From the IMG/VR virus record IMGVR_UViG_3300035698_012408: 64,000 nt of DNA. One strand, 5' to 3'. Both the position numbers and the translations under genes were made by a program. Within the stretch, counting starts at the first letter, position 1. Each line of letters begins with the position of its first letter. The notes beneath the pieces are model-generated. The model had not been told where the DNA came from, did not search any database, and saw only the letters and a program-made list of their open reading frames with translations. Origin of the DNA: a virus. Positions 10,188 to 64,000 of this stretch are shown piece after piece.

Positions 10188-10403
10188 ATGTTAGTGCTAT
10201 CTCGCAAACGCGGAGAAAGAATCTTAATTGGTGACAACATAACAGTCACCGTGGTTGACCTCCGAGACGACAAAGTGCGTCTCGGCGTCGAAGCCCCGCG
10301 AGAGGTACCGGTTAATCGACCGGAAGTTCTCCAAAAAAAGAACGCGGCCAAAGCTGCCGCCGCGGCTACCCAGACACCGCAGGACCAGTCACAGTCGGAC
10401 TGA
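10188..10403 (+). CDS. csrA: carbon storage regulator CsrA/RsmA (RNA-binding translational regulator)
   Basis: MLVLSRKRGERILIGDNITVTVVDLRDDKVRLGVEAPREVPVNRPEV is near-canonical CsrA over its whole core. SD AGGAAGGAG lies 8 nt upstream. Confidence 0.9.
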   Translation: MLVLSRKRGERILIGDNITVTVVDLRDDKVRLGVEAPREVPVNRPEVLQKKNAAKAAAAATQTPQDQSQSD

Positions 10404-11223
10404 ATGGTGTCACCGTCCTCGCGGGCTCGCCACGCTGGCGTTTGAACAGCTCGCGAATGTCACTCTCGCTATTACCTAGCACCTCTCGAACAGACGAGAA
10501 CACGAGGAATCGCTGTGCGAGTATTGTAGGTGACGGCAACGGAACGCCGGTATTGATGTAAAACGGCGGAAGCGTTTTGTCCGTGGCTCCCCAGCTGACC
10601 ATGTAGAAGCCAAGCATGGTGCAGAGCCACGACAGATACTCACCAAAGCCCCCTGGCCACTCGTTACACCGTGTTGGTGTCAGCAGCTTACGTTGGTATA
10701 ACACGCCGACAAACTGCGGACTCAACGCCATGAACGCGTCGGCCAGTGCGGGCGGTGGGGTCTCGACATTCTGATGCGGGATCTCCCATTCATAGAACAG
10801 GTTGGTTGCGGCATGAAAGGCCTTGGCGTGACCACTGGTAGTGTCTTGCACTCCCAGCAACCCTACACCCTCCTTGCTAGTCTGATCTAGCAGATACGCA
10901 TCGAATGGTTGACCCATCACGAGACACGAATCATCCAAGAAGATGACCTGCTTGTACGAGATACCCTTATCGATCGCCCACTTGAGCCCGTGCATGCGAT
11001 GGAACCCGGAACAGGCATCCTTGTCGACGGAGGTATGAATCACTTCATGAGCGCCCTCGGCCGAAAGAGTTTTGATGGTGTTCGTCTCGTCGACGGCCAC
11101 CGTGAATGTCGAACCACCGGGGCACGACCATTGAATCGAAGAGATCAGATCATTCAGGACGTACTCGCCCCGGGCAGAACTGATCACGAATAACGTGTCA
11201 ACATCGTACATAACTGCTCCCAT
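10366..11223 (-). CDS. hypothetical protein, possible GT-A-fold nucleotide-sugar transferase
   Basis: ATG 11223 or 11211; the track start 11232 is TTG. A DxD-like FLDDS follows a beta-alpha-like N-terminus. Lies immediately downstream of hldE. Its 3' end overlaps the csrA 3' end by 38 nt (convergent). Confidence 0.35.
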   Translation of the reverse strand: MGAVMYDVDTLFVISSARGEYVLNDLISSIQWSCPGGSTFTVAVDETNTIKTLSAEGAHEVIHTSVDKDACSGFHRMHGLKWAIDKGISYKQVIFLDDSCLVMGQPFDAYLLDQTSKEGVGLLGVQDTTSGHAKAFHAATNLFYEWEIPHQNVETPPPALADAFMALSPQFVGVLYQRKLLTPTRCNEWPGGFGEYLSWLCTMLGFYMVSWGATDKTLPPFYINTGVPLPSPTILAQRFLVFSSVREVLGNSESDIRELFKRQRGEPARTVTPFSPTVTGPAVSG

Positions 11224-11232
11224 TAAAAGCAA

Positions 11233-11262
11233 ACAGTCCAGCGATGTGACTCGCTGGACTGT
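11233..11262 (-). terminator. rho-independent terminator candidate downstream of hldE
   Basis: Perfect 12-bp stem ACAGTCCAGCGA/TCGCTGGACTGT with a 6-nt loop, followed on the minus strand by TTGCTTTTAA. Confidence 0.55.
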
Positions 11263-11356
11263 TGCCGATCAGGTAATGTGCGCTCGTAAAAACGTGCCGG
11301 GCTGAGCGCGAGAACTTCCATCATTCACTGCATAATAGGCAATTATGCAATGGTTG

Positions 11357-12814
11357 TCAACTCTTCTTCGTAGAGTTCTTTGCATTATCGTCCCCGAGCC
11401 GTGACGAGCTTAAATTGAAAATAATAGGGGTCAACGACAGTTTTCCGCCGTGTGACGCCACATAATCTGCACCTGGGATAGGTTCTGCGGCCGCGTCTTG
11501 CCCCTTCACCAGAACATCTGGCTTCAACTGACGCACAAGCGATTCGACATCCCCATCGAACAAAAATACGGTGTCCACAACATCCAACAACGCCAGATGT
11601 GACAGTCGATAGCTCTCGCCAACGAGCGGTCTATTGTCGCCTTTGAGCTCCCGCAAACTGGTGTCATCATTACACGCCACCACAAGACAGTCGCCTTGCC
11701 GTACTGCTGCGCGGAGCAGTTCGATATGTCCAGCATGCAACCCGTCGAAGCAACCATTGGCTAATACGATTGACTGTCGTCGCCGACGCCGTCGCCGTAC
11801 AAAGGCCAAGGCGTCATCACGATCCATACATTTGGCAGCCCATCCGGTAGCCTCGTATCGAAATTCGTCGACGGCGTCACGATGAGCCGGCACGACACCG
11901 CGATGACGCACCACCATGCCCGCAGCGTACATAGCAAACTGCACGCAAGTATCAAACGACTTGCCTTCCAAGTACCCGACGGCCATCGCCGCCATCACAG
12001 TATCACCAGCGCCGCACACATCATAAATCTGTTGCGGACTGGACTGAAAACTGTGGATCTGGTTATCCCAGGGATTGAAATACATGCAACCGTCCGACCC
12101 CTGCGTCATGAGCACGGAGCCAAAGTTACCAGCTCGCCTCAACTCCTGCAAGATGGACTCAGGCTCCCCAGCGAACACACCAGGATGCACGACGTTGTAG
12201 CGATCCACCATATCACGCGCTTCGTTGCTGTTGGGCTTCAGCAAATCCACGTTCTCGTATTGTTCAACGCAGTCCGGGCGGCAGTCTACGAAAATCGGTA
12301 TGGCGAGTTCCTGACATCGCTGCCGAAGCGCACTCCACACCGCGTCCGTCATCACGCCTTTCGCGTAATCTGCCACACATACCAATCGTACGGCCGTGCC
12401 CTCTGCGAGCCCGTAATTGAGCCCCGCTATCACGGCTTTGTCATTGCTCAATGGCAGCGTCTCATCATCCGCACGACACAGATACTGACCACCGGCCATG
12501 ATCCGCGTCTTCACGCTCGTGCGTGTACCGTCCGGCCCTTGCGGCAAACACGACACTACACCAGCTTCGTTGAGGAGTTCCCCAACCCTTCGCCCGGCAG
12601 CGTCGTCGCCTACCACGCCAAGCAGCTTCGCATGTCCGCCGAGCGTAACTATGTTGTGGGCGACGTTACCCGCACCACCTACCGATTCCGTGAAGTCGTC
12701 TTGGGCTACGACAGGAGCCGCTGCCTCGGGCGATACACGGGTCATTTCCCCGCATACCGCCCTATCCAGCATCACGTCACCGATCACCAATACCGTAGGT
12801 TTCGGATCACTCAT
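11357..12814 (-). CDS. hldE: bifunctional D-beta-D-heptose 7-phosphate kinase / D-beta-D-heptose 1-phosphate adenylyltransferase (ADP-heptose synthesis)
   Basis: N-terminal pfkB kinase (VLVIGDVMLDR, GGAGNVA, DVCGAGDT) plus C-terminal cytidylyltransferase (NGCFDGLHAGHIELL). ATG 12814 is preferred over the GTG at 12841. Confidence 0.9.
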   Translation of the reverse strand: MSDPKPTVLVIGDVMLDRAVCGEMTRVSPEAAAPVVAQDDFTESVGGAGNVAHNIVTLGGHAKLLGVVGDDAAGRRVGELLNEAGVVSCLPQGPDGTRTSVKTRIMAGGQYLCRADDETLPLSNDKAVIAGLNYGLAEGTAVRLVCVADYAKGVMTDAVWSALRQRCQELAIPIFVDCRPDCVEQYENVDLLKPNSNEARDMVDRYNVVHPGVFAGEPESILQELRRAGNFGSVLMTQGSDGCMYFNPWDNQIHSFQSSPQQIYDVCGAGDTVMAAMAVGYLEGKSFDTCVQFAMYAAGMVVRHRGVVPAHRDAVDEFRYEATGWAAKCMDRDDALAFVRRRRRRRQSIVLANGCFDGLHAGHIELLRAAVRQGDCLVVACNDDTSLRELKGDNRPLVGESYRLSHLALLDVVDTVFLFDGDVESLVRQLKPDVLVKGQDAAAEPIPGADYVASHGGKLSLTPIIFNLSSSRLGDDNAKNSTKKS

Positions 12815-14153
12815 TTGCCTTGACTTCCACGTTGATGACACCGTCAGGTGTCGTGAAATTGTAGGTACCGATAATATTCTCGCGGGGCGGAAGCTCCGCT
12901 ACCGGATGCTCCATGTCCTCGCCACGAATGACGAACGGATCAACGTAAGGACCCTGCTCGCCATTCACCACGTCGATACGTGCCATCAGCCCTTCCGCGA
13001 CGGGCACGGAGAACGGATAGATTGCATCGCCAATCGCGACATTACCCATCGGTTGCCCTTTCACGGCAAGTGCCGACATGACCGACTGGTACTCGGCTTT
13101 ACGGATCGTGATCGATCCAACACCGATCTCCGCCAACGCTGCACCTTCCGGCGTCTCGGGCGGTGTCGGCAACGAGTCGTCGATCACCTCGAACTTCTGG
13201 ATACCGAGCCCCTGCATCTGCTCGCCGGTGTCGGTTGTGAAGTCCACATAACTCTTGCCAGCCGCATCAGGCGCGGTGATGGCGTCCACGACGCCGCGAA
13301 ACTGCCGCTCGTTTGGGCCGTCATACCGCACACGTTGCCCGGCTGCGGACGGTCGAACCGCGTTCGCCGCTTTCTTCTTCCCTCCGCCGCCGCCAGTCTT
13401 GCCCGTCCGTGGCGCTCTGGGCGCCGGCTCCTCCTTGAACGCACCAGCAAGGAATTGCTCCTTCATGGCGTCATTCACGAGGAACTCCTGCAACGTCATG
13501 GGCACGGGCGTATTCTGACTCTCCGCCTCGCGGATGATGTCAATATACAACGCCGTGTACTCGACCACCTCCTTGGCCGACCACTGGTGACAGCTTTGCT
13601 CCTCTGCCGCCTTCTTCGTGCGGGGCAGCAGTGCCTTGAGCGCGTCGTTCGGGTGCTTGAGGTTCTCGCCGTCGAAGTCCGCGATCGTCGCGTACAACGT
13701 CAAGAACGTCTCGAACGGCAGCGTGGGCGTCAGCTGACGCATCCACAGGTAGTCGACGACGAGCTTGATACGCTCACCGTCACCCTTGTACCGCTCACAG
13801 CCGCCCTGTTTCGGGAATTCCCGGAGACATTGCAGGATCGACGGCTTCTCGTCCGCGATGGCCGCGTGTTGCTCCGCCACGGTCGTCTGCTCCGCCAGCC
13901 CGGCCTGCTGCACCTGAACCGGTGGAACGGACGTAGGCTGCGGCGGCACGACAGCCGCCACGGGGCCTGTAGGCGCCGGGGTCGGCGGCGGGGCCGTCGG
14001 CATCGGTGGAACCTGCGTCGGCCCGGAACCGGCCACTGGCGACCGCGCCGGCGGCTGTGCCGGCGGTTGGGCCGGCGGCTGCGCTGGGGGCTGCTGCCCT
14101 GGTGCCGTCTGAGTCTGCGGGGGTACGCCCCAATTCGCTTGATGCTGCGTCAT
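12807..14153 (-). CDS. hypothetical protein with Pro/Gln-rich low-complexity N-terminus
   Basis: 448 aa. SD AAGGAG lies upstream of ATG 14153. Contains a PAQPPAQPPAQPPA tandem repeat and a GGGGKKK patch, with a globular-looking C-terminal half. Confidence 0.65.
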   Translation of the reverse strand: MTQHQANWGVPPQTQTAPGQQPPAQPPAQPPAQPPARSPVAGSGPTQVPPMPTAPPPTPAPTGPVAAVVPPQPTSVPPVQVQQAGLAEQTTVAEQHAAIADEKPSILQCLREFPKQGGCERYKGDGERIKLVVDYLWMRQLTPTLPFETFLTLYATIADFDGENLKHPNDALKALLPRTKKAAEEQSCHQWSAKEVVEYTALYIDIIREAESQNTPVPMTLQEFLVNDAMKEQFLAGAFKEEPAPRAPRTGKTGGGGGKKKAANAVRPSAAGQRVRYDGPNERQFRGVVDAITAPDAAGKSYVDFTTDTGEQMQGLGIQKFEVIDDSLPTPPETPEGAALAEIGVGSITIRKAEYQSVMSALAVKGQPMGNVAIGDAIYPFSVPVAEGLMARIDVVNGEQGPYVDPFVIRGEDMEHPVAELPPRENIIGTYNFTTPDGVINVEVKANE

Positions 14154-14244
14154 TCTAAATTTCTCCTTCAGTTGTCATCGTCGGAAACGATGGCCTTCCA
14201 AAATAAAGTAAGGTACAGTAAGTTTCTGAGTCCTATCAATTTTT

Positions 14245-15201
14245 CTATATCGGCTGCTCGTTCGTCTGCTTGCGACGACGTAACGCCCCGAAGTCCGCCT
14301 GTAATCGCATACGGTAGGTGCGTCTCGCGTCCAACCACTGTAGCGTGCGATCAACGTCGCCACGCAGCAACAGAACTGGATACCGGCAAACACGCGCTAC
14401 CGCCCCAAATATTGCCGCCCGCGTGGGGCACTCATGCCGGGTCACCTTGCCGTGTATAATGTCTTCGGGTGTCGGGTAATCTGCCAGCACCTTGTATAAC
14501 CGACGATGACATACCCGCCAGCCCCGCGGCACTGGTTCTACAGTCGTCAACGAAAACGCGCCATGATGCTCCACCCTGCGAAATATTGCTGCTTTCCGCC
14601 GTGATACCAAATCCTTCATATAGACGCCGATCCACTTTGCTTCACTCCATTGAGGCGAGAATGTTTCTGGAACCGTCGAAACGTACGTCGTGTGCTTCTG
14701 CTCAATCAGATGAAACGGGAAAACAGTATCGTCTATCTCATCTAACTGAATTGCCCGCAAATTGCGACCATCGCAGTGCGCGACCACCGCATCCACCTGA
14801 GCCTGTAAACCTCTCCGTGTGTTATGAAATAGTGAATCCACACCCAGCCATACCTTACGCGCAGACCGGGCCCAGCAAAACGGACACAAGTCATTAAGTC
14901 GACAAGACCGTGTGAGTGGTTTGACCGCTACAAACGTAGGCATGCAATTTCTGCAATATCCGACAGCGTGCGGGTTCGCCGTGCCATGCGGTGTCCAACC
15001 TAACGCCGCCAACGCCCCCAACCGTGCCCGCCACACAGCCACGAGCTGTTGAGTCTTCTTCCGAATCGACGCCTGCGCTCTCACCTGCGTCGACCCCTTG
15101 GCGGGGCCCACCAACGGATAAAGCACCGTGGCCCGCTGAATCGCATCAACGAGTCGCATCGGTACAAATCCGTTAATGGAGAATCTCGTATCACTTATCA
15201 T
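14245..15201 (-). CDS. hypothetical protein with CxxC...CPFC motif (possible Zn-binding DNA-acting protein)
   Basis: 318 aa with CRNCMPTF...LCPFCWARSARKVW and an internal GRNLRAIQLDEIDD copy of the recurrent motif. Confidence 0.55.
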   Translation of the reverse strand: MISDTRFSINGFVPMRLVDAIQRATVLYPLVGPAKGSTQVRAQASIRKKTQQLVAVWRARLGALAALGWTPHGTANPHAVGYCRNCMPTFVAVKPLTRSCRLNDLCPFCWARSARKVWLGVDSLFHNTRRGLQAQVDAVVAHCDGRNLRAIQLDEIDDTVFPFHLIEQKHTTYVSTVPETFSPQWSEAKWIGVYMKDLVSRRKAAIFRRVEHHGAFSLTTVEPVPRGWRVCHRRLYKVLADYPTPEDIIHGKVTRHECPTRAAIFGAVARVCRYPVLLLRGDVDRTLQWLDARRTYRMRLQADFGALRRRKQTNEQPI

Positions 15202-15210
15202 CAGAATGTC

Positions 15211-15492
15211 CTAACCTTCTGCGGCCACCTGGAGTTCGCGGATACGCTCGGCGACGGCATGGAGCTGCTGCTCCGCAGAGCAGCAACGACCCGCAAGCTC
15301 ATTCATGCCACAGTCATCGTCCTTGTCGCACAGTTCGCGGCACAGGAACAGAAACAACGTATCACCAATACCGCCCGACTCTGCGTCCGCCGCTTCGATG
15401 TCTGCAAGCGTTGTACCACCACCCACACTGATCGGAATCAGGTCCGCCCCAGGGTAGGCGTCGTAAAGCTGTTTAATTGTCAACATGCTCAT
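15211..15492 (-). CDS. hypothetical small protein
   Basis: 93 aa, with an ATGA overlap with the upstream gene at 15489..15492. Confidence 0.5.
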   Translation of the reverse strand: MSMLTIKQLYDAYPGADLIPISVGGGTTLADIEAADAESGGIGDTLFLFLCRELCDKDDDCGMNELAGRCCSAEQQLHAVAERIRELQVAAEG

Positions 15493-23774: not shown

Positions 23775-24497
23775 TCAATGGCCATCCGGGATTTCGCCCT
23801 TTTCGATCGCGACGACCTTCAGACCGTAAGACTTGAGCGTCTCCATCAACAGCTCTGCATAAGCGAGAGCCGCCTCGTCCTGCGTCACCTCGTCGCGGAG
23901 GAACTGGGCGAACAGAATACGGGTCCGTTCGCGGACGTTGGTGATCGTGCTCGCGTCTTCGCCCATGACGCCGTCCGTCAGCGGTGTTGTCACCAGCTGC
24001 TTGACCGGTAACTTGTTCTCCCCCGCTGGTTCACTGGCGGAGATCCAGATCGGCACACCGTCATACGGGCTGACGGGGCCGTCGATCGCGGGATCATTGG
24101 AGAGCGTCTCCAGATAAGCCGTATCGAACCCGACGAGCGGGCCGCCGGCCAACCGGCGAATCTCGACGAGCTCCTCACCGCCGCCCGCCGCAATCGTGGC
24201 GGTGCCGACATAGGAGGTACTGGTAACACACGCGTTGGGCGTACGTGGCTCAGCCGCCGGCGACGTGCCATAGCACCCCACCTTGCGAACACTGGCCTCC
24301 CGTGGGATGCGGAAAAGGTCAAAAGACCCCTGACACGGTTCGTCATCGATCCGCTCCGCCACACGGTTACGACAAACCCGCAGCTCACCGCTCACAACAG
24401 CGACACCGTTGAGAAACACGAACACGTCGTGTATCAGCAGATCACCAAACTGGCAGTCATGATGCTGCCCCGCGGGGAAAATAATTTTCTGCATCAT
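23775..24497 (-). CDS. hypothetical protein
   Basis: 240 aa with an ATGA overlap at 24494..24497. Confidence 0.55.
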   Translation of the reverse strand: MMQKIIFPAGQHHDCQFGDLLIHDVFVFLNGVAVVSGELRVCRNRVAERIDDEPCQGSFDLFRIPREASVRKVGCYGTSPAAEPRTPNACVTSTSYVGTATIAAGGGEELVEIRRLAGGPLVGFDTAYLETLSNDPAIDGPVSPYDGVPIWISASEPAGENKLPVKQLVTTPLTDGVMGEDASTITNVRERTRILFAQFLRDEVTQDEAALAYAELLMETLKSYGLKVVAIEKGEIPDGH

Positions 24498-25639
24498 TCG
24501 TCTTCATCTCCATAATTGAGATCAATAGCGCGTAGATTCCGGCCACCATGCTGCGGCGGCGGAACAGGAGGACGCTCAATGGTATCACCCCAAAGGGCTA
24601 AACCGTGAGCGCCGAGTCGCCGCCGAAAGCCGGCAAGCGTGACCGGGCCAATATCTGGACAACCCAAGAAATCCGAAGCCGTGAACAGCAAGACGTCACG
24701 AACAGAACGAGGCGACTGAGTTTTTCCAAGACCAAGCCGCCGCATGGCATCAGCCACGCGGGCCGGTATCTTGTCACCGTAAAGGTTCGTCCACGGCTGA
24801 CTCAAGATCGTTGCATCCTCGATACCGAGGCGGTCTTCGGGATCTTCCCCGAGGAACTCAAGCTGCGCGACCTCCAGGTCACTATGGGTCACCCGCTGGT
24901 GGAAGGCCACGGCCACATCATGCACCGCGTCAATTACCGTCTCGTGTGAGGCACCGGGTTGCAACAACAGCCTGTCGTAACCACCCGAGGCGATTACCTC
25001 CGTCACCAGCGCCCGGTAGGTTTGCGAATTGTCAATATACTGATCCCGCCACGCGATGGCGTCCAGCATCGCCTGCACCCACGACGCCTTATCCGTGACA
25101 TAGCGGACGGTCCAACCGTGGTCATTCAACCGTTGGTGGTTATAAGCAAATGCCCGCCGCTTCAGCACACCCTCGGCGACAATTCGCACGTTAAGCCAAC
25201 CGCGTCGCGTGTCGCGAGTTTGATAGATATTGGCATGCGACTGCGCAAGCGAGGCATCCGTAACATCCGCACCGTCCGGGACCGCCGGGAGATCCGTCAC
25301 GAGCAACCCAAAGCGGGAAGCAACCGCCAACCGCGACTCTTGCCGCCCGGTCGCACGACCTTCCGTAAGACCCTGAAGCAGCCCAGCATCGAAGCCCGCG
25401 GCGTGCCCCTTATCATGACCCTTCTCGACGATCTCCTCGATCGACTGCTCCGCCTGCCACTTCATCTGTCTGACCTCTTCACCAGCCACCTCGACCAGAG
25501 AATAAGCCTGGCGCGCTGCGTCATCTATCGCTCGCGTCCGCAGCTGTTTGGACTTCTTCCAACCGCTCCGATAACCGGCCAAATAACCGATCGGATGGAT
25601 GACCGCCTCGTGGAGCCATCTCACAAATCTTCCAAGCAT
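24494..25639 (-). CDS. hypothetical protein; C-terminal region looks helix-hairpin-helix-like
   Basis: ATG 25639 has SD AGGAGG 5 nt upstream. RVADAMRRLGLGKTQSPRSVRDVLLFTASDFLGCPDIGPVTLAGFRRRL resembles RpoA alpha-CTD/HhH segments (from memory, weak). C-terminus is GRNLRAIDLNYGDEDE. Confidence 0.55.
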   Translation of the reverse strand: MLGRFVRWLHEAVIHPIGYLAGYRSGWKKSKQLRTRAIDDAARQAYSLVEVAGEEVRQMKWQAEQSIEEIVEKGHDKGHAAGFDAGLLQGLTEGRATGRQESRLAVASRFGLLVTDLPAVPDGADVTDASLAQSHANIYQTRDTRRGWLNVRIVAEGVLKRRAFAYNHQRLNDHGWTVRYVTDKASWVQAMLDAIAWRDQYIDNSQTYRALVTEVIASGGYDRLLLQPGASHETVIDAVHDVAVAFHQRVTHSDLEVAQLEFLGEDPEDRLGIEDATILSQPWTNLYGDKIPARVADAMRRLGLGKTQSPRSVRDVLLFTASDFLGCPDIGPVTLAGFRRRLGAHGLALWGDTIERPPVPPPQHGGRNLRAIDLNYGDEDE

Positions 25640-25662
25640 ATTCACCTCCTGTGAGTGACTAA

Positions 25663-37688: not shown

Positions 37689-37928
37689 TTAGGGCGTCGG
37701 ACTTTGTGGCTTCCGAGCCACGGGACCGCCTTCTACCGCGGGTGCTGAGGACGCAGGGGACCGCAAAGAACCGAGTCCCTTGCAGATCGCGACACAAAGA
37801 CACCACAGTGCGGTAAGTAGGCCCACGACTACGCTCCAAGCGTAGGTAGCCAATGTTTCACAGCCGTTTTCAAACCATTGAAATCCCGGCTCTTCCGGCG
37901 CTTCGCCAGATTTTGTATCATAATCCAT
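37689..37928 (-). CDS. small membrane protein
   Basis: 79 aa with GGAG 11 nt upstream. One TM segment, AWSVVVGLLTALWCLCVAI. Its start codon overlaps the terL start in a CATG. Confidence 0.45.
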   Translation of the reverse strand: MDYDTKSGEAPEEPGFQWFENGCETLATYAWSVVVGLLTALWCLCVAICKGLGSLRSPASSAPAVEGGPVARKPQSPTP

Positions 37929-39858
37929 GTCAATAATAACTCCAAATCCTTTGCAGGATCATCGTCGCTCCGCACTTTCCAACAGAGAAGTAAGTTCCAT
38001 TCTCTCAGATCTGGAAGCCCAGAAAGTATCTGGGAGGACGCAAGGCAACGTCGATCGAATTATCCAGCTACGCAGGCTGGCCGAGGCGGGGGCAGTTCAA
38101 ACGCTAGAACCGCTGTTACCCCTCTGTCTTACTCTTCAAGGAAAACCATACGAATTAAGCGATCACTTTCCGTTTTCGCCGGTTTTCAATGTCTCGATGC
38201 CGTCGAACCTATTGCTCAAGACAGGGCGGCAGGTATCTAAGTCGACATCGCTGGCCAGTCACGGTGTGATGTTAGCCAACGCCATTCCGTTCTTCCGCAC
38301 ACTTTATATCACGCCGCTCTACGAGCAGATTCGGCGATTCTCCAACAACTACGTGCGACCGTTTATCGATCGTTCTCCGATCAAGTCGCTGTGGTCTGGG
38401 ACGAACACTGAGAACTCGGTGTTACAGCGGTCGTTCAAAAACCTATCGTCGATGCTGTTCAGCTTCGCGTTGATGGACGCCGATCGGGTGCGTGGTATCT
38501 CGGCGGACAAGATTTGCATTGATGAAGTCCAGGACATGGACCCCGATCACATCCCCATTATCCGAGAAGTTATGAGCCACTCGGATTGGGGCCTTATGCA
38601 GACAACTGGAACGCCAAAATCCCTGGATAATCCAATCGAGGGCATCTGGCGTCGTAGTTCGCAAGCGGAATGGTTCATACCGTGTTACTCGTGTGGGGCT
38701 TGGAATATCCCGTCGCTGGAGTTTCATGTTTACGATATGATTGGGCCAGTACATGATGACATATCTGAATCCTGTCCTGGTGTAATCTGCCACAAATGCA
38801 GACGTCCGATCTTCCCGCGACACGGACACTGGGTACACCGGTATCCGCAACGTCGTTGGCAGCTCGCCGGCTTCCACGTCCCGCAGATCGTTATGCCGTT
38901 GCACTATGGCAGGCGGGATAAATGGGCGGAACTTGTTGCGAAGCAGGGCGGCTGGGGAAATACCACAGCCTCCACGTTCGCCAACGAAGTATTAGGCGAG
39001 TCTATCGATGCTGGTCAAAAACTAATCTCGGAGACAGAGCTGCGAGCGGCTTCAACACTTGAGTGGCGTAACGACCCAGACAGGCCATGCGACGCCGTGA
39101 TAAATCGCTTGCAGCATTACGAACAGCGAGTGTTGGCAGTAGACTGGGGCGGCGGTGGCCAAGACGGCGTATCCTTCACCACGGTAGCGGCGCTAGGTTA
39201 CACGTCGGCCGGACAGATTCACGTGCTGTGGGGCAAGCGGATGATCGCCTCGCAGGAACACCTTCGGGAGGCCCGAGAGATCCTGCATTGGCTACAAGTA
39301 TTCCGCTGTGACCTAATGGCCCATGACTACACTGGCGCTGGTGTCGTCCGCGAGACCGTAATGGTTCAAGCTGGTTTCGACCTTGAGCGAGTGATGGCCA
39401 TTCAGTATGTCCGAGCCGCCGCCAACAATCTAATGCGGTTCGTACCGCCGTCCGTGCTGCACAACCGCGCACATTACCGCTTGGATAAAACGCGATCGAT
39501 ACTTTATATGATGCAAGCAATCAAGTTACGACTGCTGCAATTTTTCCAGTATGATTACAACAACGATGATGACGCTGGGTTGATCAATGACTTCCTAGCG
39601 CTCGTTGAAGAGAAGACCGAAAGCCGGCTGGCAGGTGACATCTACACCATCACACGCAACCCGATGCTCTCGGACGACTTCGCCCAATCTGTGAACATCG
39701 GGTGCTCTGCCATCTGGCATGCGAACAATAGCTGGCCAAATTTCGCTGAAGCTGCCTCGATAGGCCGTATTAACTCCAGCCAAATTATAGCCACGGGTTC
39801 GCGAGAGTATGGATGGGACGAAGATCAGACGATGCGAGGCTTCTTCAATCAGCCTTAA
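37927..39858 (+). CDS. terL: terminase large subunit
   Basis: 643 aa. Walker A-like KTGRQVSKST and Walker B KICIDEVQD, with a C-terminal RNase H-like nuclease half (VLAVDWGGGG...AHDYTGAG). Confidence 0.8.
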   Translation: MSIITPNPLQDHRRSALSNREVSSILSDLEAQKVSGRTQGNVDRIIQLRRLAEAGAVQTLEPLLPLCLTLQGKPYELSDHFPFSPVFNVSMPSNLLLKTGRQVSKSTSLASHGVMLANAIPFFRTLYITPLYEQIRRFSNNYVRPFIDRSPIKSLWSGTNTENSVLQRSFKNLSSMLFSFALMDADRVRGISADKICIDEVQDMDPDHIPIIREVMSHSDWGLMQTTGTPKSLDNPIEGIWRRSSQAEWFIPCYSCGAWNIPSLEFHVYDMIGPVHDDISESCPGVICHKCRRPIFPRHGHWVHRYPQRRWQLAGFHVPQIVMPLHYGRRDKWAELVAKQGGWGNTTASTFANEVLGESIDAGQKLISETELRAASTLEWRNDPDRPCDAVINRLQHYEQRVLAVDWGGGGQDGVSFTTVAALGYTSAGQIHVLWGKRMIASQEHLREAREILHWLQVFRCDLMAHDYTGAGVVRETVMVQAGFDLERVMAIQYVRAAANNLMRFVPPSVLHNRAHYRLDKTRSILYMMQAIKLRLLQFFQYDYNNDDDAGLINDFLALVEEKTESRLAGDIYTITRNPMLSDDFAQSVNIGCSAIWHANNSWPNFAEAASIGRINSSQIIATGSREYGWDEDQTMRGFFNQP

Positions 39859-40130: not shown

Positions 40131-40442
40131 TCATTCATGGCCGAATTCGTCGTCGTCTTCTTCGTCGTAGTCTTCGTCGAAGTCGTCGTCGAAATCATCC
40201 TCGTCCCATTCCTCTTCGTCCTCGTCAACCGCGTCGGTCGATTGCTCGATAGGCAAGATCACTGGGTCGAATTGTGGTACGATAGTGTCAGCGCGTGTGG
40301 CTGCTTCCATCGCGTGGCCGTCAAGTATACCAAAAGCCTCAGGCAGCTCCTCGGGACAGAGATCGTCTTCGAGGTTAGGATAGAGGCAAAATGGGACGTC
40401 GACCACGGGAATCATCAAGTCGCTTGACATTTGGATCTCCAA
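40131..40442 (-). CDS. small hyper-acidic protein
   Basis: C-terminal DEDEEEWDEDDFDDDFDEDYDEEDDDEFGHE. Confidence 0.5.
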   Translation of the reverse strand: MEIQMSSDLMIPVVDVPFCLYPNLEDDLCPEELPEAFGILDGHAMEAATRADTIVPQFDPVILPIEQSTDAVDEDEEEWDEDDFDDDFDEDYDEEDDDEFGHE

Positions 40443-43162
40443 TTCGTTAGTTCTTGGTTAAACCACGGCTCGGGTACGAGCCATCCTTGTTCATCCTTGT
40501 ATGGCGACTCACCCACGAGTACGCCTAGTTCTTCCAACGAACGTGTGATTAGTAAGAGATCTGGACGTAGGCCACCCGCCTTATGCACAGCATCGCTGAG
40601 CATGTTTTGGGATACCCATATCACCGGCACGTCACGCGTCTCGCTAGACACGATGGCGTGCTGTCTCTGCTTTGCGTCGTCATGAGACGCTCTTGTATAG
40701 TCCAATTTTCCGTCACGGTGAAGCCGGAAAATGAGATGCAAGAAGTGACTAGCCGGCGGGCCGGTAGCCGGTGTGACCAGTACGGATTTTGCGGCTTGCA
40801 CCGCGTCACTGTTACCGCCAACGCTGTAAAACCATTCTGCCATGTCATCCAGCACGTTGATGATCAGATCATCGCAGTCGTCTGCCAGCAGCAGATTCCG
40901 CTGGTATATGTCGCGAAGGTAGTTTGGCAGCACGTAGGGTGCGGCGTGTTGGGATAGTTGCATCGACCCGAGTTTTCGGTCGCAATGAATCATATTCCAC
41001 CCGCCGCGGCTGGCCAGCACACGATTTGCTGCCCACGGTAACGCCACGATAATATTCTGAGCTTCTGGGGAGTCCAACCATTCTCCACACTTGTTTACGT
41101 CACACAGGATCGTAGGCCAGAGATACTGGTTGACCTGCGAGCAGATCCCTGCCAGCGGTGCGTGGCCTTTTGCCGCTGGCACAGACACGCACCCGAGCCG
41201 GGAGGCCGCCGCTGCTCCGACTGACTGACCCCCATCCCCGTCAAGCAGTAGCCCGACAGGTTTACGGCGCAGCGCCGGAGCTAGTAAGTTAGAACCTACT
41301 GCGGCCGCCGTTGCCCAGAACAGAGCTGTTTCATCATTCACATCACTGAGCGATTCCATGTGCTTTCTCGGGAAATTGCCCGGTTTCGGGATGTCTTTCG
41401 CCGGCACGCGTTCATTGTCAAACAGGCAAGCATATTTGTCCGTAACCTCGCCGTTTCGGCATATTGAGAATTGCGGAAAATTAAACTGCCTATTTCGTTC
41501 GTCCCAGCCCACCACCTCAACGCCATGAATGAATTCAGGCGTGTGGAACGCGATAGCCAGCTGGAATGATTTAGTGTTCCATGATGGGTAATATTCCAGC
41601 ACACCAACCTGTAGCTCGTCGCGGAGATAGTCATGTGCCCACTTGAGCAAACCCTTCTCCACAACGTCGGCCCGCGCGGTGAACGGGTACACATGACCGT
41701 GGAATTTGATCGTGCCACGGTGATAACTTCTATGGTCCGCAGTAGTTAGAACCTGTTCGACACGGATAATCGCGTTGCAGATGCGATCATTCCCGCGTTC
41801 GACATACCACCCGTCATTCTTCTCGAATAACCAACGGTTCTCGAACCGCACCCTGGCACCGTGCGAACGGTTACGTTCGATGTACTCCAGGCGTTCTCGA
41901 AGCTCCGGGTCACAGCCTTTGATAAACTCTGCGAGGTCACGACCTTGTAGCTCCATGTCTGTCAAAAGTATTGACTCGATTTCAGCTTTCGGCATGTCAC
42001 GCAGCAGTTGCCGCAACGCGGTGGCCCACGGCTGGGCGCTCCATTTCATCTGGTCCAGCCACTCTTCCGGCCCGCGGTGCCGCATGTCCTTCGCTATTTC
42101 CTTCCCGGAAACGTCGATGAGCGACACCTTAGCGTTGGCCCGTTTGGCGTGAAGAATTGCCGCGACAGCGTTGTCATTCCCCCAGCAAACTAAATCTTCG
42201 TGGCCTAGCCAGTTCCAGACGTCTGCTGTTTCATAATTCTCGTCCTTGTAGGCTACCGCGATCGGGAGCGGGCGGAAATGATCTTTCATGTACCGCATTT
42301 GCAAGCGGATGGCGAACTCGTGATCGGTAAATATAAAACCGGTATGCCCCAACCGGGGCAGCGGGGGAAGCATCAGTGAGTCGAGCATCGCGAGCCCTGA
42401 CTCGTTGCCACATCCAAAATTTGCCAAATGTCGGTAAAAGAAGTCACGTGACGGATCTCCGTCACGCCCAATTAACATAAATCCGCAGATTCTACCAGGA
42501 ACATCGTAATGTGGCATGACCAGCATGTCTTGCCACTGGGACCCCGGCATGAGATGACTCACACAAGACGTGCCGGATCGCTTCCCGCCTTTGCTGCCAC
42601 TGGCAGCCACTCGGGCGTCAGATTTAGCCACGGTGTGTGGCATTACCAGCTCCATGAGCTTCGATCTTGTGCTAGATCCAATAAATTGCCCGCCTTTTCG
42701 CGGCCAGTCTTCACTCCACCGGCCCACGCTATATCGCCCCTGGAGCATGGACAACTCGGGTGAATCGCACTTTACATGGCACGCCTGAGCGTCCTGCCAG
42801 AAGGCCGCCACACGCTGTGGGTACTTGACGTGGTCTTTGATATAGTCCCTAATAACAGATGGTGATAGGACGGCTTCGGAGAGCCCAATTTGGGAATCTA
42901 CGAGCTTTCGGAGCGTCGCGGGAGTATCGAGCTTCCAAACTGCGGCCGCAAGCTGTATCATATTTCCAGAGAACGAACACGCGTCACAGCGTGTCCATTC
43001 ACCACCGGCGGTTCCGTCTTGGTATATTCGGAGTTGTCGCGCAGCCCCACAGACCGGGCAATTCGTCATAGACGGAAGCGCAGCAGATTTAATGCGTACT
43101 CCTAAAAGCGGGAGTACGTGCTGGAAACTAACCTGACGACTTAGAGAGGACGATCTTCTCAT
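40415..43162 (-). CDS. large protein with N-terminal primase-type zinc finger (putative DNA primase or primase-associated replication protein)
   Basis: ATG 43162; the track start 43168 is TTG. CPVCG-x19-CDACSFSGNMIQLAA resembles the DnaG CHC2 finger plus the GDxIxF motif. The remaining ~850 aa have no motif I can name. Confidence 0.4.
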   Translation of the reverse strand: MRRSSSLSRQVSFQHVLPLLGVRIKSAALPSMTNCPVCGAARQLRIYQDGTAGGEWTRCDACSFSGNMIQLAAAVWKLDTPATLRKLVDSQIGLSEAVLSPSVIRDYIKDHVKYPQRVAAFWQDAQACHVKCDSPELSMLQGRYSVGRWSEDWPRKGGQFIGSSTRSKLMELVMPHTVAKSDARVAASGSKGGKRSGTSCVSHLMPGSQWQDMLVMPHYDVPGRICGFMLIGRDGDPSRDFFYRHLANFGCGNESGLAMLDSLMLPPLPRLGHTGFIFTDHEFAIRLQMRYMKDHFRPLPIAVAYKDENYETADVWNWLGHEDLVCWGNDNAVAAILHAKRANAKVSLIDVSGKEIAKDMRHRGPEEWLDQMKWSAQPWATALRQLLRDMPKAEIESILLTDMELQGRDLAEFIKGCDPELRERLEYIERNRSHGARVRFENRWLFEKNDGWYVERGNDRICNAIIRVEQVLTTADHRSYHRGTIKFHGHVYPFTARADVVEKGLLKWAHDYLRDELQVGVLEYYPSWNTKSFQLAIAFHTPEFIHGVEVVGWDERNRQFNFPQFSICRNGEVTDKYACLFDNERVPAKDIPKPGNFPRKHMESLSDVNDETALFWATAAAVGSNLLAPALRRKPVGLLLDGDGGQSVGAAAASRLGCVSVPAAKGHAPLAGICSQVNQYLWPTILCDVNKCGEWLDSPEAQNIIVALPWAANRVLASRGGWNMIHCDRKLGSMQLSQHAAPYVLPNYLRDIYQRNLLLADDCDDLIINVLDDMAEWFYSVGGNSDAVQAAKSVLVTPATGPPASHFLHLIFRLHRDGKLDYTRASHDDAKQRQHAIVSSETRDVPVIWVSQNMLSDAVHKAGGLRPDLLLITRSLEELGVLVGESPYKDEQGWLVPEPWFNQELTNWRSKCQAT

Positions 43163-44381
43163 GTCCAATTTGATCCTTGATCACACACGAGACCTATCCG
43201 GCACGGAACTACATCGGCTAACGCAGCTGTATCCACCGCCGGAATTCGTGAAAACAGCAGACCATGACGCGCTCCACGGAAACCCCGAGGAATTACCCGC
43301 GCATGTCTATGCCATGATAGCAGACCGACTGTTCCCATGCCACACCAAGGCAGCTACGTGGATGTCGGCTCTGTTCTTCCGGGACCAGTCTCGGAAGCTC
43401 CACCCATCTGTGGCGGAAGCCACCGAAGGGCGGTTACGTAAATCTGCTGGATTTTTCAAGATCCAGCCAGCAGTTGACGAACTCTGGGAAAAAATGGCCA
43501 GTGAGGAAGCTCACGGCCAGGAGCGTCTCCCAGACAGCGACTTCGCTCTCGTCTGGGAAGGCGAAGGAGCCCCGAAGGAACGGCATTACCCGCTCCGTAA
43601 CGGTGGCGAGGTCAAAATGGCTTCCGACTGGTTCGGAACATACCACGGTGAATTCAACTTCGGCGACAAGAACCGGATCGCAACTAAGATCCTGGCAAAA
43701 GCCGACGAGCATGGTGCTATGGTAGCCAATTCCGAGCTGCTTAACAAGTGTGCCGGCTACGGTTACTGCTCTGCGGAAGATGCCGCGGCAGCCTGGGAGA
43801 AGCGAGCACAGCTGCTTCAGCGAAGCCACCCGGATTTTGCCGTCGAGGCTCAGACCCTCGGGCAATCCATCCGTGCCAACACGTTCGAGGCCCGAGACCA
43901 GGGCATGCGAGTCAAAATGGCTTCGCTCATGTCCCAGTTTGACGGCCAGACGCACTTGGACCAGCTTTATGACGACGGCGGTCTGGAGCGGCCTGAAGAT
44001 TCGTTGTTCCTGGTAACCGAAAAGGTTGCAGGCGACTTCTTAATGGCCCACGCCCAGACAACCACCGGCGCCATTTATGAAAAGCAGGCCCTGGAACGTC
44101 TACCGTTGGAAAGCATCCGAGAGTGGATGGGCGACGACTTCGCAGATGAAGTTGCCGCTGGCGGCGTCATGCTGGATACCGAAAAGCTAGCCGAGATCCT
44201 CCCGACACTTCCCCGCGACGACGCGGAGATGTTCGAGAAGATGACCTCAGCTTTGCAGGTTCCGGTAGCCGCACGAGAGAAGGCGGCGGCCGACCAAGGC
44301 ATGTCCTTGGAGGAGATGGAAGCGTTCGCGGAGCAGTACGGCCAAACGGCCGCACTAAACCCCGAAGCAGCGATTAGCTAA
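43161..44381 (+). CDS. hypothetical protein (isolated plus-strand gene)
   Basis: 406 aa with SD GAGAGGA ~11 nt upstream. Helical, acidic composition. Scaffold-like is only a guess. Confidence 0.6.
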   Translation: MSNLILDHTRDLSGTELHRLTQLYPPPEFVKTADHDALHGNPEELPAHVYAMIADRLFPCHTKAATWMSALFFRDQSRKLHPSVAEATEGRLRKSAGFFKIQPAVDELWEKMASEEAHGQERLPDSDFALVWEGEGAPKERHYPLRNGGEVKMASDWFGTYHGEFNFGDKNRIATKILAKADEHGAMVANSELLNKCAGYGYCSAEDAAAAWEKRAQLLQRSHPDFAVEAQTLGQSIRANTFEARDQGMRVKMASLMSQFDGQTHLDQLYDDGGLERPEDSLFLVTEKVAGDFLMAHAQTTTGAIYEKQALERLPLESIREWMGDDFADEVAAGGVMLDTEKLAEILPTLPRDDAEMFEKMTSALQVPVAAREKAAADQGMSLEEMEAFAEQYGQTAALNPEAAIS

Positions 44382-44943: not shown

Positions 44944-45582
44944 TTACTCCTCATGAGGGTCATCCAGATCGATGACACGTTCCCTGTTGTTCCCGCTGGC
45001 TACGGTGCCACGAGAATCGCTAATCGTTTCAGTAGGCATCGCCGGGGGCATATTATCCGCCGGCTGAACCGCAGGGTCTTCTGACCCCGAGGGAGCATAC
45101 TCATACTCCACGAGCACCTGCATGATCCAGTCACACAGCAAATCAATATTATCGATCAGCTTGTTTTCGAGATCAGGCCCGTCACGGTGCTGCACACGAC
45201 ATCGCCATTTCGCGTCCGCAAGATCCGTAATAGTTCTCGGTGTCTGTCTGGTCGCGAGTGTGATGATCAATGTGTAATCGTTATCCAACGCCTGAGCAAC
45301 CTGCGGCGGCTCTTCCATCCGCTCAATGAAGTTGCGAAAGGAACTACCGGGAATCACACGAGCCCCGTCTGTTACCGCAAAGCCGCTAGCGTGCAATTCA
45401 TCGAATATGTCGAACACCGGATCAAAGAAATGGATGATCCCGTCCCGTAGTGTTACTGCATCCGTCGCTGCACTTGTGGGTGCGTGAGCACGCTCGCGGG
45501 CAGCCTCCAGCGACGCCTGGACCTTGCTCCGCCGCGGTGGCGGCCCCGGTCGGCGCGGGTATCGATGTGCTCGTCTTGTCAT
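44944..45582 (-). CDS. hypothetical protein
   Basis: 212 aa. C-terminus is NNRERVIDLDDPHEE (recurrent motif). Confidence 0.6.
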   Translation of the reverse strand: MTRRAHRYPRRPGPPPRRSKVQASLEAARERAHAPTSAATDAVTLRDGIIHFFDPVFDIFDELHASGFAVTDGARVIPGSSFRNFIERMEEPPQVAQALDNDYTLIITLATRQTPRTITDLADAKWRCRVQHRDGPDLENKLIDNIDLLCDWIMQVLVEYEYAPSGSEDPAVQPADNMPPAMPTETISDSRGTVASGNNRERVIDLDDPHEE

Positions 45583-50671: not shown

Positions 50672-50712
50672 AAAAAAACGATAGCCAGAGATGCGGCTCC
50701 CTGACTATCGTT
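50672..50712 (-). terminator. rho-independent terminator
   Basis: 12-bp stem (one mismatch) AACGATAGTCAG/CTGGCTATCGTT, followed by TTTTTTT on the minus strand. Confidence 0.65.
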
Positions 50713-50735
50713 CGGCGACGCGAGGATGCGAGGTC

Positions 50736-51104: not shown

Positions 51105-51219
51105 TGAGATCTCTCCTGTAAAAGGGAAATTGGTCGGGCCGTCGCCCGAGACACGTGTCAGATACTAAGTGTAAACGATGCTGCCCGGGATACGCAACCC
51201 CGGACAGCCAAGAAGAAGC

Positions 51220-62793: not shown

Positions 62794-64000
<1,207 letters not shown>

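Follow-up and report, generated by a model that had tools for sequence, protein, structure and literature searches.

A lineage of large uncultivated phages appears to keep, by inheritance, its own predicted ADP-heptose synthase (HldE) together with a GT9-type transferase. ADP-heptose chemistry is best known from the lipopolysaccharide (LPS) cores of Gram-negative bacteria and from the heptosylation of a few adhesins, and we know of no described viral counterpart of bacterial protein O-heptosylation. If this reading is true, heptosylation would be core phage biology, not an occasional borrowed metabolic gene. Our analysis covers one stretch of 64 kb (the window) of an uncultivated phage genome of ~215 kb. 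Collectively, the synteny of HldE, its co-occurrence with the GT9 gene and a biosynthetic cassette in a distant relative support a predicted phage-directed heptosylation pathway.

The gene for the HldE-like bifunctional heptose-7-P kinase / heptose-1-P adenylyltransferase lies on the minus strand (11357..12814). The ATG of the gene call at 12814 gives a protein of 485 aa, and a start at the upstream GTG (12841) would give 494 aa. Pfam assigns residues 17-317 to PfkB (9e-40) and residues 360-452 to CTP_transf_like (6e-12), and the NCBIfam HldE model PRK11316 aligns end to end (residues 15-482 with 11-467 of 475, 309.8 bits). The best PDB matches are HldA (4e84, 1e-39) and HldC (5x9q, 1e-19). 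These matches place the protein in the HldE family, with its fused kinase and cytidylyltransferase-like architecture (~475 aa), and bear out the full-length bifunctional enzyme proposed in the initial annotation. Alignment with E. coli HldE and 25 homologues reveals the catalytic and nucleotide-binding motifs of the family. The phage and E. coli enzymes have in common the N-terminal GDVMLDR...SPEA, PN..E, GAGD, NGxFDxLHxGH and LKG..RP, and the phage residues aligned with the E. coli motifs include N195, E198, G268-A269-G270-D271, N353-G354, F356-D357 and G362-H363. The catalytic Asp of GAGD is D264 in E. coli HldE. Residues without variation among the 25 homologues include D13, L16, D17, R18, N195, G268-A269-G270-D271, N353-G354, F356-D357 and G362-H363, and the motifs are invariant or nearly so except for the first His of NGxFDxLHxGH. 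Every motif examined on the alignment is intact, and the architecture and motifs together support the prediction of an intact, bifunctional HldE. The protein scores under all three NCBIfam equivalog cut-offs (NF008454, 309.8 versus 521; TIGR02198, 235.9 versus 345; TIGR02199, 129.3 versus 181.5). By these scores, which do not certify its sugar specificity, the phage enzyme is a divergent family member, and we infer its heptose specificity from family resemblance.

The genes flanking the HldE locus encode SbcD, SbcC, a helicase and a class II RNR, in agreement with the earlier placement of HldE in a replication-gene block. The gene order orf318, up448, HldE, followed by SbcD, SbcC and the helicase, is kept in the relatives L091, L092, L004, L005, L006, L010 and L020, and the syntenic position of HldE is constant across a clade of uncultivated phages of roughly 150-230 kb. 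Moreover, HldE identity is 41-63% inside the clade versus 35-39% to the best cellular proteins. Because the same syntenic position recurs across the clade, HldE is, judged from gene order, inherited in the phage lineage and not a recent acquisition from a host. Phage HldE as such is less rare than the initial annotation implied: HldE-like genes occur on >500 IMG/VR contigs and are also annotated in cyanomyoviruses. Virus-encoded HldE is already common.

Two further genes adjoin HldE. The downstream ORF, with its stop at 10366, encodes GT-A281, an orphan glycosyltransferase-like protein of 281 aa (10366..11211, minus strand) that has no match in Pfam, NCBIfam and PHROG searches. Its AF2 model (pLDDT 78, pTM 0.79) matches only GT-A structures, as expected from the possible GT-A-fold protein noted earlier at this position: the top 50 Foldseek matches in the PDB are all GT-A glycosyltransferases (E ~1e-6, probability 1.0, TM-scores 0.31-0.46), and the BFVD viral structures yield generic GT-A matches only. 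Homologues number 17 in a 5.8-billion-protein database, and an exhaustive HMM search gives 78 representative clusters. D41 and D94 are invariant, and the expected DxD-type motif reads x-D94-x-C, with a single invariant Asp. GT-A281 adjoins HldE in L001, L005, L091 and L092 and is missing in the HldE-bearing relatives L004, L006, L010 and L020; its coupling to HldE is therefore not obligatory. Directly upstream, up448 (448 aa, 12807..14153, minus strand) overlaps the HldE start with its stop by 8 nt and holds the same position in L091, L092, L004 and L005. Its N-terminus is Pro-rich and variable, and its C-terminal ~340 aa are conserved. No function is assigned to up448 by homology, as Pfam, PHROG and PDB searches, including one with a five-sequence profile, give no match. 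Additionally, the intergenic region between HldE and GT-A281 (11232..11360, minus strand) contains, by consensus scan only, a perfect 13-bp hairpin and a putative near-consensus sigma-70-like promoter (TTGACA-17-TATTAT); the sequence of this region is not conserved in relatives. The plus-strand ORFs 11882..12823 and 12498..14459, antisense to HldE and up448, are never called as genes in any contig and were taken as coding-strand shadows.

The GT9-GT-A protein (726 aa, 58444..60624, minus strand) consists of a GT9 domain with a GT-B fold (residues ~1-330), a disordered Pro-rich linker and a GT-A domain (~410-660). PF01075 matches residues 108-235 with 52.3 bits versus a cut-off of 22. In the AF2 model (pLDDT 80.6), the top GT-B matches of the GT9 domain by Foldseek are WaaF (3.5e-9), TibC (8e-8), WaaC and 3tov, which all belong to GT9, and the C-terminal GT-A domain matches TarP and SpsA. 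Similarly, a profile search finds WaaF at 6.5e-7. Both its Pfam score and its GT-B fold, with GT9 structures as the nearest matches, place the protein at 58444..60624 with CAZy GT9, and the heptosyltransferase-like GT9 domain named in the initial annotation is confirmed. The catalytic GD (G17-D18) and the phosphate-binding K-x-W (K149-x-W151) align with those of WaaF and WaaC. In the phage family (CGVTxxMH), Val occupies the place of the D(S/T)G Asp, which we take to be a conserved residue for sugar binding in GT9; WaaF has NDSG here and WaaC has VDTG (the latter read off alignments). Furthermore, the N domain carries an invariant Cys/His cluster and the GT-A domain an invariant DDD motif. The Cys cluster in the C-lobe of the GT9 domain, with the invariant spacing C-X4-C-X14-C-X13-C, recalls in sequence the similarly spaced iron finger of TibC (C-X2-C-X15-C-X11-C; PMC4358343). 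The model opens directly with a Rossmann-like N-lobe and lacks the N-terminal beta-barrel that characterizes a BAHT. GT9-GT-A has 392 homologues, with 42-70% identity among the 120 listed, and the only cellular match among those listed is a frameshifted N-domain fragment beside an integrase gene; a tblastn search (E <= 1e-5) of a 50,697-record phage collection gives no match. By these searches, the family is phage-specific, with no close full-length cellular homologue. As for HldE, the heptose specificity of the GT9 domain is suggested by family resemblance.

Some 46 kb separate HldE from the GT9 gene in this phage, and both are conserved on contigs of roughly 205-230 kb. Each match is listed with the length of its longest contig, and nine such lengths occur in both the HldE and the GT9 match list (215361, 228391, 225518, 205215, 213269, 213490, 220619, 74038 and 62190). 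In addition, IMG/VR contig 3300037067_026010 carries both genes (HldE in L004, GT9 in L120), and contig 3300000944_000005 (155,625 bp) has the GT9 gene L117, with the HldE homologue P0037 on a contig of equal size. The distant relative L124 has a split, heptose-type cassette for nucleotide-sugar synthesis (PfkB / HAD-like / cupin / cytidylyltransferase) at a distance of 1.2 kb from its GT9 gene. The claim that HldE and GT9 together imply phage-directed heptosylation therefore stands in part: co-conservation and the L124 cassette support the link between the two genes, and heptose as the sugar follows from family resemblance only.

The remaining pathway genes are lacking within the window, as the initial annotation had stated; a boost of just the two HldE steps, as also proposed there, is one possibility for the phage as a whole. 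E. coli GmhA, GmhB and HldD give a best E of 0.4 against all six-frame ORFs of the window, the cupin and HAD proteins of the L124 cassette have no match there, and Pfam finds no SIS, HAD or epimerase domain in essentially all of its called genes. Collectively, the 64 kb contain no gene for GmhA, GmhB, HldD, a cupin isomerase or a small HAD, and the complete phage-encoded set for ADP-heptose (GmhA, HldE, GmhB, HldD) is not present in it. In IMG/VR, none of the best 80 of 224 GmhA-like viral loci is on a clade contig, and among the best 80 of at least 578 stretches with an L124-type cupin, no clade contig appears apart from L124. The natural donor of the GT9 enzyme TibC is ADP-D,D-heptose (PMC4358343), which is the direct product of HldE, so hldD need not be present and may be dispensable in the phage system.

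The reading that we favour, at somewhat less than even confidence, is that the phage produces activated heptose itself for phage-specified glycosylation, preferably of a virion protein. By homology, the HldE-like enzyme would phosphorylate D-glycero-D-manno-heptose-7-P at C1, with the GmhA isomerase and GmhB phosphatase steps supplied by the host or by phage genes outside the 64-kb window. The GT9 domain of GT9-GT-A would then transfer the heptose, as its co-conservation and family suggest, and the fused GT-A domain, GT-A281 and, in this phage, two TPR-containing glycosyltransferases might extend or vary the glycan. These two paralogues lie next to the GT9-GT-A gene: the first (360 aa, 60626..61708, minus strand) matches phrog_13126 'beta-1,4-glycosyltransferase' (1e-70) and Pfam TPR repeats, and the second (354 aa, 61705..62769, minus strand) matches phrog_13126 (1e-73) and, with an N-terminal GT2-like region, Pfam Glyco_tranf_2_4 and TPR. 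Directly upstream lies the gene for a collagen-like fibre protein (62794..64000, running off the window end, minus strand; Pfam Collagen 2.4e-19) with GPT-rich G-X-Y repeats and a globular C-terminal domain of ~130 aa. Speculatively, the acceptor would be a phage-encoded surface protein of the virion, and most likely this fibre, in the way that BAHT enzymes (TibC, AAH) act on autotransporters and glycosyltransferases on the exosporium protein BclA.

The collagen-like GPT-repeat gene, the two TPR-glycosyltransferase genes and the GT9-GT-A gene are contiguous and co-oriented, and 12 of 31 IMG/VR relatives likewise have a collagen-like ORF upstream of GT9. This arrangement and the Cys cluster reminiscent of TibC are hints of a protein acceptor. 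Within the available flanking DNA, a collagen-like ORF is absent upstream of GT9 in 19 of the 31 relatives and on both sides in 18; the TPR-glycosyltransferases were found in only 2 relatives, and no structural protein was identified near the glycosyltransferase cluster. Several observations count against the proposal, namely the HldE scores below the equivalog cut-offs, a GT9 domain without the D(S/T)G Asp, the ~46 kb gap, the patchy occurrence of GT-A281, the frequent absence of the collagen-like ORF and the lack of a beta-barrel.

The same genes could instead serve the host envelope: HldE would lift the host ADP-heptose pool, and the phage glycosyltransferases would modify an envelope glycan such as the LPS core, the O-antigen or the capsule. 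The phage might thereby keep the envelope intact through a long jumbo-phage infection, mask the receptor against superinfection or give lysis debris an altered surface. The best characterised GT9 matches are LPS-core heptosyltransferases, with WaaF on top in both sequence and structure, and cyanomyovirus annotations place HldE, gmhA and LPS-type genes under carbohydrate or LPS functions. HldE alone would also suit a host with GmhA and GmhB of its own, and its neighbours are genes of replication and nucleotide metabolism, not recognisable structural genes. However, HldE has diverged in fixed synteny throughout a deep clade of phages, a pattern not typical of auxiliary genes taken from hosts, GT9-GT-A is a phage-specific fusion without a close cellular full-length homologue, and by Pfam the phage glycosyltransferases match no membrane or lipid-carrier family. 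On this evidence, we regard envelope remodelling as unlikely, at roughly one chance in four. Alternatively, the sugar itself may differ, the HldE-like enzyme and the GT9-like domain having diverged to a sugar phosphate other than glycero-manno-heptose, in which case no heptosylation would occur. All HldE-specific NCBIfam models falling below cut-off, the Asp-to-Val change in the GT9 sugar-binding motif across the phage family and the window's lack of a GmhA-type isomerase for heptose-7-P supply are consistent with such a shift. Nevertheless, HldE is by far the best family for the enzyme (~310 bits versus <=65 for the runner-up PfkB kinase families), the HldE-specific N-terminal motif and all catalytic motifs are kept, and the GT9 domain has its best structural matches among heptosyltransferases alone, which makes a different sugar quite improbable.

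HldE might also feed a DNA glycosyltransferase (GT-A281 and/or GT9-GT-A), with a heptosylated hydroxymethylpyrimidine blocking restriction or CRISPR nucleases. The precedent is a metagenomic phage cluster that, once reconstructed in E. coli, modified 5hmC with one or two heptoses (bioRxiv 10.1101/2023.12.21.572611). HldE, GT-A281 and up448 lie within the replication and repair block, and the C-terminal GT-A domain of GT9-GT-A is TarP-like with a DDD motif, as reported for phage DNA GT-A enzymes (bioRxiv 10.1101/2023.12.21.572611). However, no dCMP/dUMP hydroxymethylase, cytosine methyltransferase or TET/JBP-type dioxygenase was detected in the 64 kb, the known DNA heptosyltransferase is T4 beta-GT-like and not GT9 (bioRxiv 10.1101/2023.12.21.572611), and several HldE-bearing relatives lack GT-A281, so that DNA hypermodification seems improbable. 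In a more elaborate version, which we hold to be a long shot, up448, HldE and GT-A281 would form a nucleic-acid modification module whose GT-A enzyme heptosylates phage DNA or a nucleotide precursor from ADP-heptose, unrelated to the beta-GT-like heptosyl-5hmC system, with GT9-GT-A separately heptosylating virion proteins.

Compared with known systems, the phage HldE has the two-domain architecture, length and motifs of E. coli HldE (RfaE) and of the split Burkholderia HldA/HldC (4e84, 5x9q). In contrast, it is only 31% identical to the E. coli enzyme and below the equivalog cut-offs, and unlike the bacterial genes it sits in a replication block, with no gmhA, gmhB or hldD nearby in the 64-kb window. 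T4-like cyanophages (S-CAM1, S-SSM7, P-SSM2) and huge phages (LR756511) likewise encode heptose kinase/nucleotidyltransferase genes. Those of the cyanophages are 26-29% identical, often split and neighboured by a phosphoheptose isomerase gene and further sugar genes, whereas the HldE described here is fused, stands alone and is paired across the genome with GT9-GT-A. The phage GT9 domain has the GT-B fold, the catalytic GD and the K-x-W of WaaC/WaaF and TibC/AAH, and the Cys cluster inserted in its C-lobe is reminiscent of the iron finger of TibC. It differs from these enzymes in its fusion to GT-A by a Pro-rich linker, the lack of a BAHT beta-barrel, the change of the D(S/T)G Asp to Val and its phage-specific family.

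Virion glycosylation occurs on the capsid and tail of mycobacteriophages and through the glycan machinery of chloroviruses and mimiviruses, and the collagen-like BclA of Bacillus is also glycosylated. We know of no heptose or GT9 enzyme in these systems. The phage studied here resembles them in placing glycosyltransferases beside a structural or collagen-like protein and in virus-encoded sugar-nucleotide synthesis, the acceptor being only a candidate. This comparison draws partly on Freeman et al. 2023 as summarised in PMC12619734. The heptosyl-5hmC cluster (Pyle et al., bioRxiv 10.1101/2023.12.21.572611; Cell Rep 2024 as cited in PMC12619734) likewise combines phage nucleotide-sugar synthesis with glycosyltransferases and transfers heptose. 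Its enzymes are a HAD/APH kinase, a stand-alone cytidylyltransferase and a GT-B enzyme resembling beta-GT, and it needs MT/TET enzymes for 5hmC; none of these was found in the 64-kb window. If the acceptor is a virion protein, virion glycosylation as seen in mycobacteriophages and giant viruses would gain a new sugar and enzyme family, and adsorption, stability and recognition of the virion by host defences could change. If it is DNA or the host envelope, the pathway would bear on anti-restriction or superinfection exclusion. In addition, enzymology gains new and well-defined targets in the GT9-GT-A fusion and the orphan GT-A family.

The window has no nucleotide similarity to known phages, and the terminase is just 29-32% identical to those of Vibrio phage D69 and Salmonella phage Arash. 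The moraphages of PMC12619734 were rejected as a match, since they form another lineage with Bacteroidota hosts and the paper mentions neither heptose nor CsrA. The MAG labels of binned phage contigs conflict (Alcaligenaceae, Aquaspirillum and Hyphomicrobiaceae). The closest named cellular HldE proteins include those of Planctomycetota, a weak hint of the host, and a Planctomycetota chromosome carries the frameshifted GT9 N-domain fragment adjoining an integrase gene, a similarly weak hint.

At 10366..12814, where the initial annotation placed an HldE gene followed by a possible GT-A-fold protein, two minus-strand genes occupy exactly that interval, as called publicly on identical DNA from other samples. 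The first (11357..12814) encodes a 485-aa HldE-like protein with a PfkB domain at residues 17-317 (Pfam, 9e-40) and a CTP_transf_like domain at residues 360-452 (6e-12). The NCBIfam HldE model aligns over its full length at 309.8 bits, and the next unrelated kinase family reaches 65 bits. Because this score lies under the curated equivalog cut-offs (521 for the full model, 345 and 181.5 for the two domain models), we call the protein a divergent HldE, not a certified equivalog. Its nearest solved structures are the HldA heptose-7-P kinase 4e84 (1e-39) and the HldC adenylyltransferase 5x9q (1e-19), and it is 31% identical to E. coli HldE. Loss of catalytic residues had been named as grounds for rejecting the assignment; the residues are present. 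In an alignment with E. coli HldE and five homologues, the N-terminal GDVMLDR...SPEA segment is intact, as are GGAxNVA, SDYxKG, PN..E, the GAGD loop, NGxFDxLHxGH, N.D.S...KG..RP, and PD.LVKG, and the positions of these motifs are invariant or nearly so across 25 homologues. With these motifs intact, the HldE-like enzyme looks functional.

The second gene (10366..11211, minus strand) encodes the 281-aa orphan GT-A281, which has no family match in Pfam, NCBIfam, or PHROG. Only 17 homologues, all 45-68% identical, were found in a database of 5.8 billion proteins, and an exhaustive profile search of 1.84 billion representatives returned 78 clusters, nearly all single-domain and of similar length. 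An AlphaFold2 model built from the 17-sequence alignment (pLDDT 78, pTM 0.79) supports the predicted GT-A fold: the top 50 Foldseek matches in the PDB are exclusively GT-A glycosyltransferases (E ~1e-6, probability 1.0, TM-scores 0.31-0.46), including XXYLT1, GtrB, B3GalT6, GpgS, WrtF, and ABO transferases. Similarly, a viral structure library gave generic GT-A matches from giant viruses and phages. In the region of the expected DxD motif, a single Asp, D94 (x-D-x-C), is invariant, as is D41. The intergenic region between the two genes (11232..11360, minus strand) holds a near-consensus candidate sigma-70-type promoter, TTGACA-17-TATTAT (11/12 matches), and a perfect 13-bp hairpin; this sequence shows no conservation in relatives. 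A CsrA homologue of 71 aa (10188..10403, plus strand; Pfam, 2.5e-23) is encoded convergently to the GT-A281 gene, with which it shares 38 nt at the 3' end of the latter. This antisense layout is retained in the related loci L091 and L092, and CsrA also adjoins HldE in three others (L006, L010, and L020). As CsrA is a post-transcriptional regulator of carbon flux, its place beside a sugar-nucleotide gene may be more than coincidence.

On the other side of HldE lies the gene for a 448-aa protein (12807..14153, minus strand), with an overlap of 8 nt between its stop and the HldE start. The N-terminus of this protein varies and is rich in Pro and Thr, conservation extends over the last ~340 aa, and synteny with HldE is seen in L091, L092, L004, and L005; searches of Pfam, PHROG, and the PDB gave no match. 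HldE homologues that are 41-63% identical lie on contigs of 155-229 kb; for the best named cellular homologues, identity is 35-39%. The HldE neighbourhood of the window recurs on two NCBI contigs (228 kb and 213 kb), in the order of a 470-500-aa protein, HldE, a 277-295-aa GT-A-like protein, CsrA on the opposite strand, a small ORF, SbcD, and SbcC, with a helicase further on. In five more distant IMG/VR loci (L004, L005, L006, L010, and L020; HldE 32-39% identical), the position of HldE is kept, and GT-A281 occurs in L005 only. Collectively, the identity pattern and the kept position point to HldE as an old, vertically inherited gene of the phage lineage. GT-A281 is its accessory partner.

The window belongs to a large phage, and its proteins recur on a 215,361-bp contig. 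Family matches include SbcC, SbcD/Mre11, a helicase, a class II ribonucleotide reductase, a GP88-family protein (45579..46331, minus strand; PF17338, 1.7e-33), and an AAA ATPase (phrog_8638, 6.6e-109) followed by a DUF2997 protein (50700..52878, minus strand). The terminase large subunit (GpA_ATPase), annotated at 37927..39858, is just 29-32% identical to those of Vibrio phage D69 and Salmonella phage Arash, and no deposited phage matches the window at the nucleotide level. Genes lie on the minus strand nearly throughout, GC skew is persistently negative, and the 64 kb hold no tRNA genes. PHROG and Pfam searches assign no family to most window proteins, among them presumed structural ones such as those at 40415..43168 and 46332..47492. 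A 383-aa protein (24494..25645, minus strand) weakly matches the stem domain of fukutin-related protein (E = 0.005) and may be another sugar- or ribitol-phosphate-transferase-like gene.

The reported lack of gmhA, gmhB, and hldD holds for the 64-kb window, beyond which ~150 kb of genome lies. When E. coli GmhA, GmhB, and HldD were compared with all six-frame ORFs of at least 40 aa, the best E was 0.4. Furthermore, Pfam annotation of essentially all called genes, precomputed for identical contigs or run in this analysis, revealed no SIS, HAD, or SDR-epimerase domains. At many other viral HldE loci, genes of the HldD-like, GmhA, GmhB, or cupin/HAD types lie no more than 10 kb away, in contrast to the present clade. 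The absence of hldD poses no problem, because the bacterial autotransporter heptosyltransferase TibC naturally uses ADP-D,D-heptose, which HldE yields directly (PMC4358343).

The GT9 domain proposed at 58444..60624 is borne out by an above-cut-off PF01075 match in the 726-aa protein encoded there and by structural similarity to heptosyltransferases. The family is strongly conserved, with 392 homologues and 42-70% identity among the 120 listed, nearly all across ~90% of the length. According to the family alignment and an AlphaFold2 model (pLDDT 80.6), the protein consists of two domains with a disordered Pro-rich linker between them. Structural matches of the N-terminal domain are WaaF (3.5e-9), 3tov (a GT9 protein of Veillonella), TibC (8e-8), and WaaC, and a profile search of PDB sequences also recovered WaaF at 6.5e-7. 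Those of the C-terminal domain are GT-A enzymes, among them TarP and SpsA, and this domain has an invariant W-x-DDD motif. In the GT9 domain, the catalytic GD and K-x-W motif align with WaaF, and Val takes the place of the D(S/T)G..H Asp throughout the phage family. Moreover, H262, H266, C273, C274, C279, C294, and C308 are invariant, in a region of lower model confidence (residues 262-308). TibC has an iron finger of four Cys (C339, C342, C358, and C370) inserted in its C-lobe (PMC4358343). The phage C-X4-C-X14-C-X13-C arrangement, likewise in the C-lobe, recalls it in spacing and position, and the cluster may form a similar metal-binding knuckle. In contrast, the beta-barrel characteristic of TibC and AAH is absent from the phage model.

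Several observations connect the two enzymes. The HldE and GT9 homologue lists have nine longest-contig bp values in common; IMG/VR contig 3300037067_026010 bears both genes, and contig 3300000944_000005 bears a GT9 gene and equals in length (155,625 bp) the contig of the HldE homologue P0037. In the loci compared, homologues of a 348-aa and a 228-aa protein invariably come after the GT9 gene, and in about half of these loci the AAA ATPase lies a few kb downstream. In the more distantly related locus L124 (IMGVR_UViG_3300031623_000011), whose GT9 protein is 39% identical to that of the window, just 1.2 kb separates the GT9 gene from a four-gene cassette (13243..15214, minus strand). The cassette products are a PfkB kinase, a weak HAD-like protein, a cupin, and a cytidylyltransferase; as an isomerase/kinase/phosphatase/nucleotidyltransferase set, they parallel GmhA, HldA, GmhB, and HldC. 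Cupins of this type, with identities as high as 76%, occur in at least 578 IMG/VR stretches, and giant-virus bins contain versions fused to the HAD, which suggests a mobile viral nucleotide-sugar module with the cupin replacing GmhA; the cupin and small HAD were not found in the 64-kb window. Therefore, two genomic solutions, the fused HldE of the clade and the split cassette of L124, put heptose-type nucleotide-sugar genes in GT9-bearing phages, and no other observation argues as strongly for dependence of the GT9 enzyme on a heptose-type donor. We regard the HldE-to-GT9 link as probable, and the proposed phage-directed heptosylation is partly supported, with the co-occurrence and the L124 cassette in its favour. 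Most likely, the phage would make ADP-D,D-heptose, which its GT9 enzyme would use on a phage-chosen acceptor.

Candidates for that acceptor are a virion protein, the host envelope, and DNA. The GT9 gene comes last in a co-oriented run, after a collagen-like gene and two paralogous TPR-glycosyltransferase genes (phrog_13126, ~1e-70); TPR fusions are typical of protein glycosyltransferases. The collagen-like protein (62794..64000, minus strand), which runs past the window end and at whose gene the metagenomic contigs of the phage break, has GPT-rich triplets, two 15-residue interruptions with Cys-Cys pairs, and a C-terminal globular domain of ~130 aa, a layout resembling the glycosylated BclA fibre of Bacillus. 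Among 31 IMG/VR relatives, a collagen-like ORF lies upstream of the GT9 gene in 12 and in none of the other 19, and the TPR-glycosyltransferases are present in just two, so the association is suggestive rather than general. We favour a virion protein, such as this fibre, as a tentative candidate, although it is less likely than not to be the acceptor. The host envelope competes with it, as the best GT9 matches are LPS enzymes. DNA is a further rival: another phage gene cluster makes heptosyl-5hmC (bioRxiv 10.1101/2023.12.21.572611) and HldE sits in the replication block, but no enzyme making 5-hydroxymethylpyrimidine is visible in the 64-kb window.

Virus-encoded HldE is already known: cyanomyoviruses such as S-CAM1, S-SSM7, and P-SSM2 have annotated copies, often accompanied by phosphoheptose isomerase, and HldE also occurs in huge phages and on over 500 IMG/VR contigs, some of them in giant-virus bins. 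Literature searches returned no description of the present clade or of a phage GT9 system, and a tblastn search of a phage collection with the GT9-GT-A protein gave no match. Three features appear to be undescribed: a fused HldE with a fixed place in the replication block of a deep lineage of jumbo phages, the lineage-wide GT9-GT-A fusion with its Cys cluster, and the orphan GT-A281 family. Finally, a Planctomycetota MAG contig (CAVQLN010000013.1; locus L098, 9007..10964) carries a frameshifted homologue of the GT9 N-domain (37% identity) that adjoins a phage-integrase-family gene amid typical planctomycete genes (ECF sigma factor, DUF1559); this fragment, possibly left behind by a phage, may hint weakly at the host.
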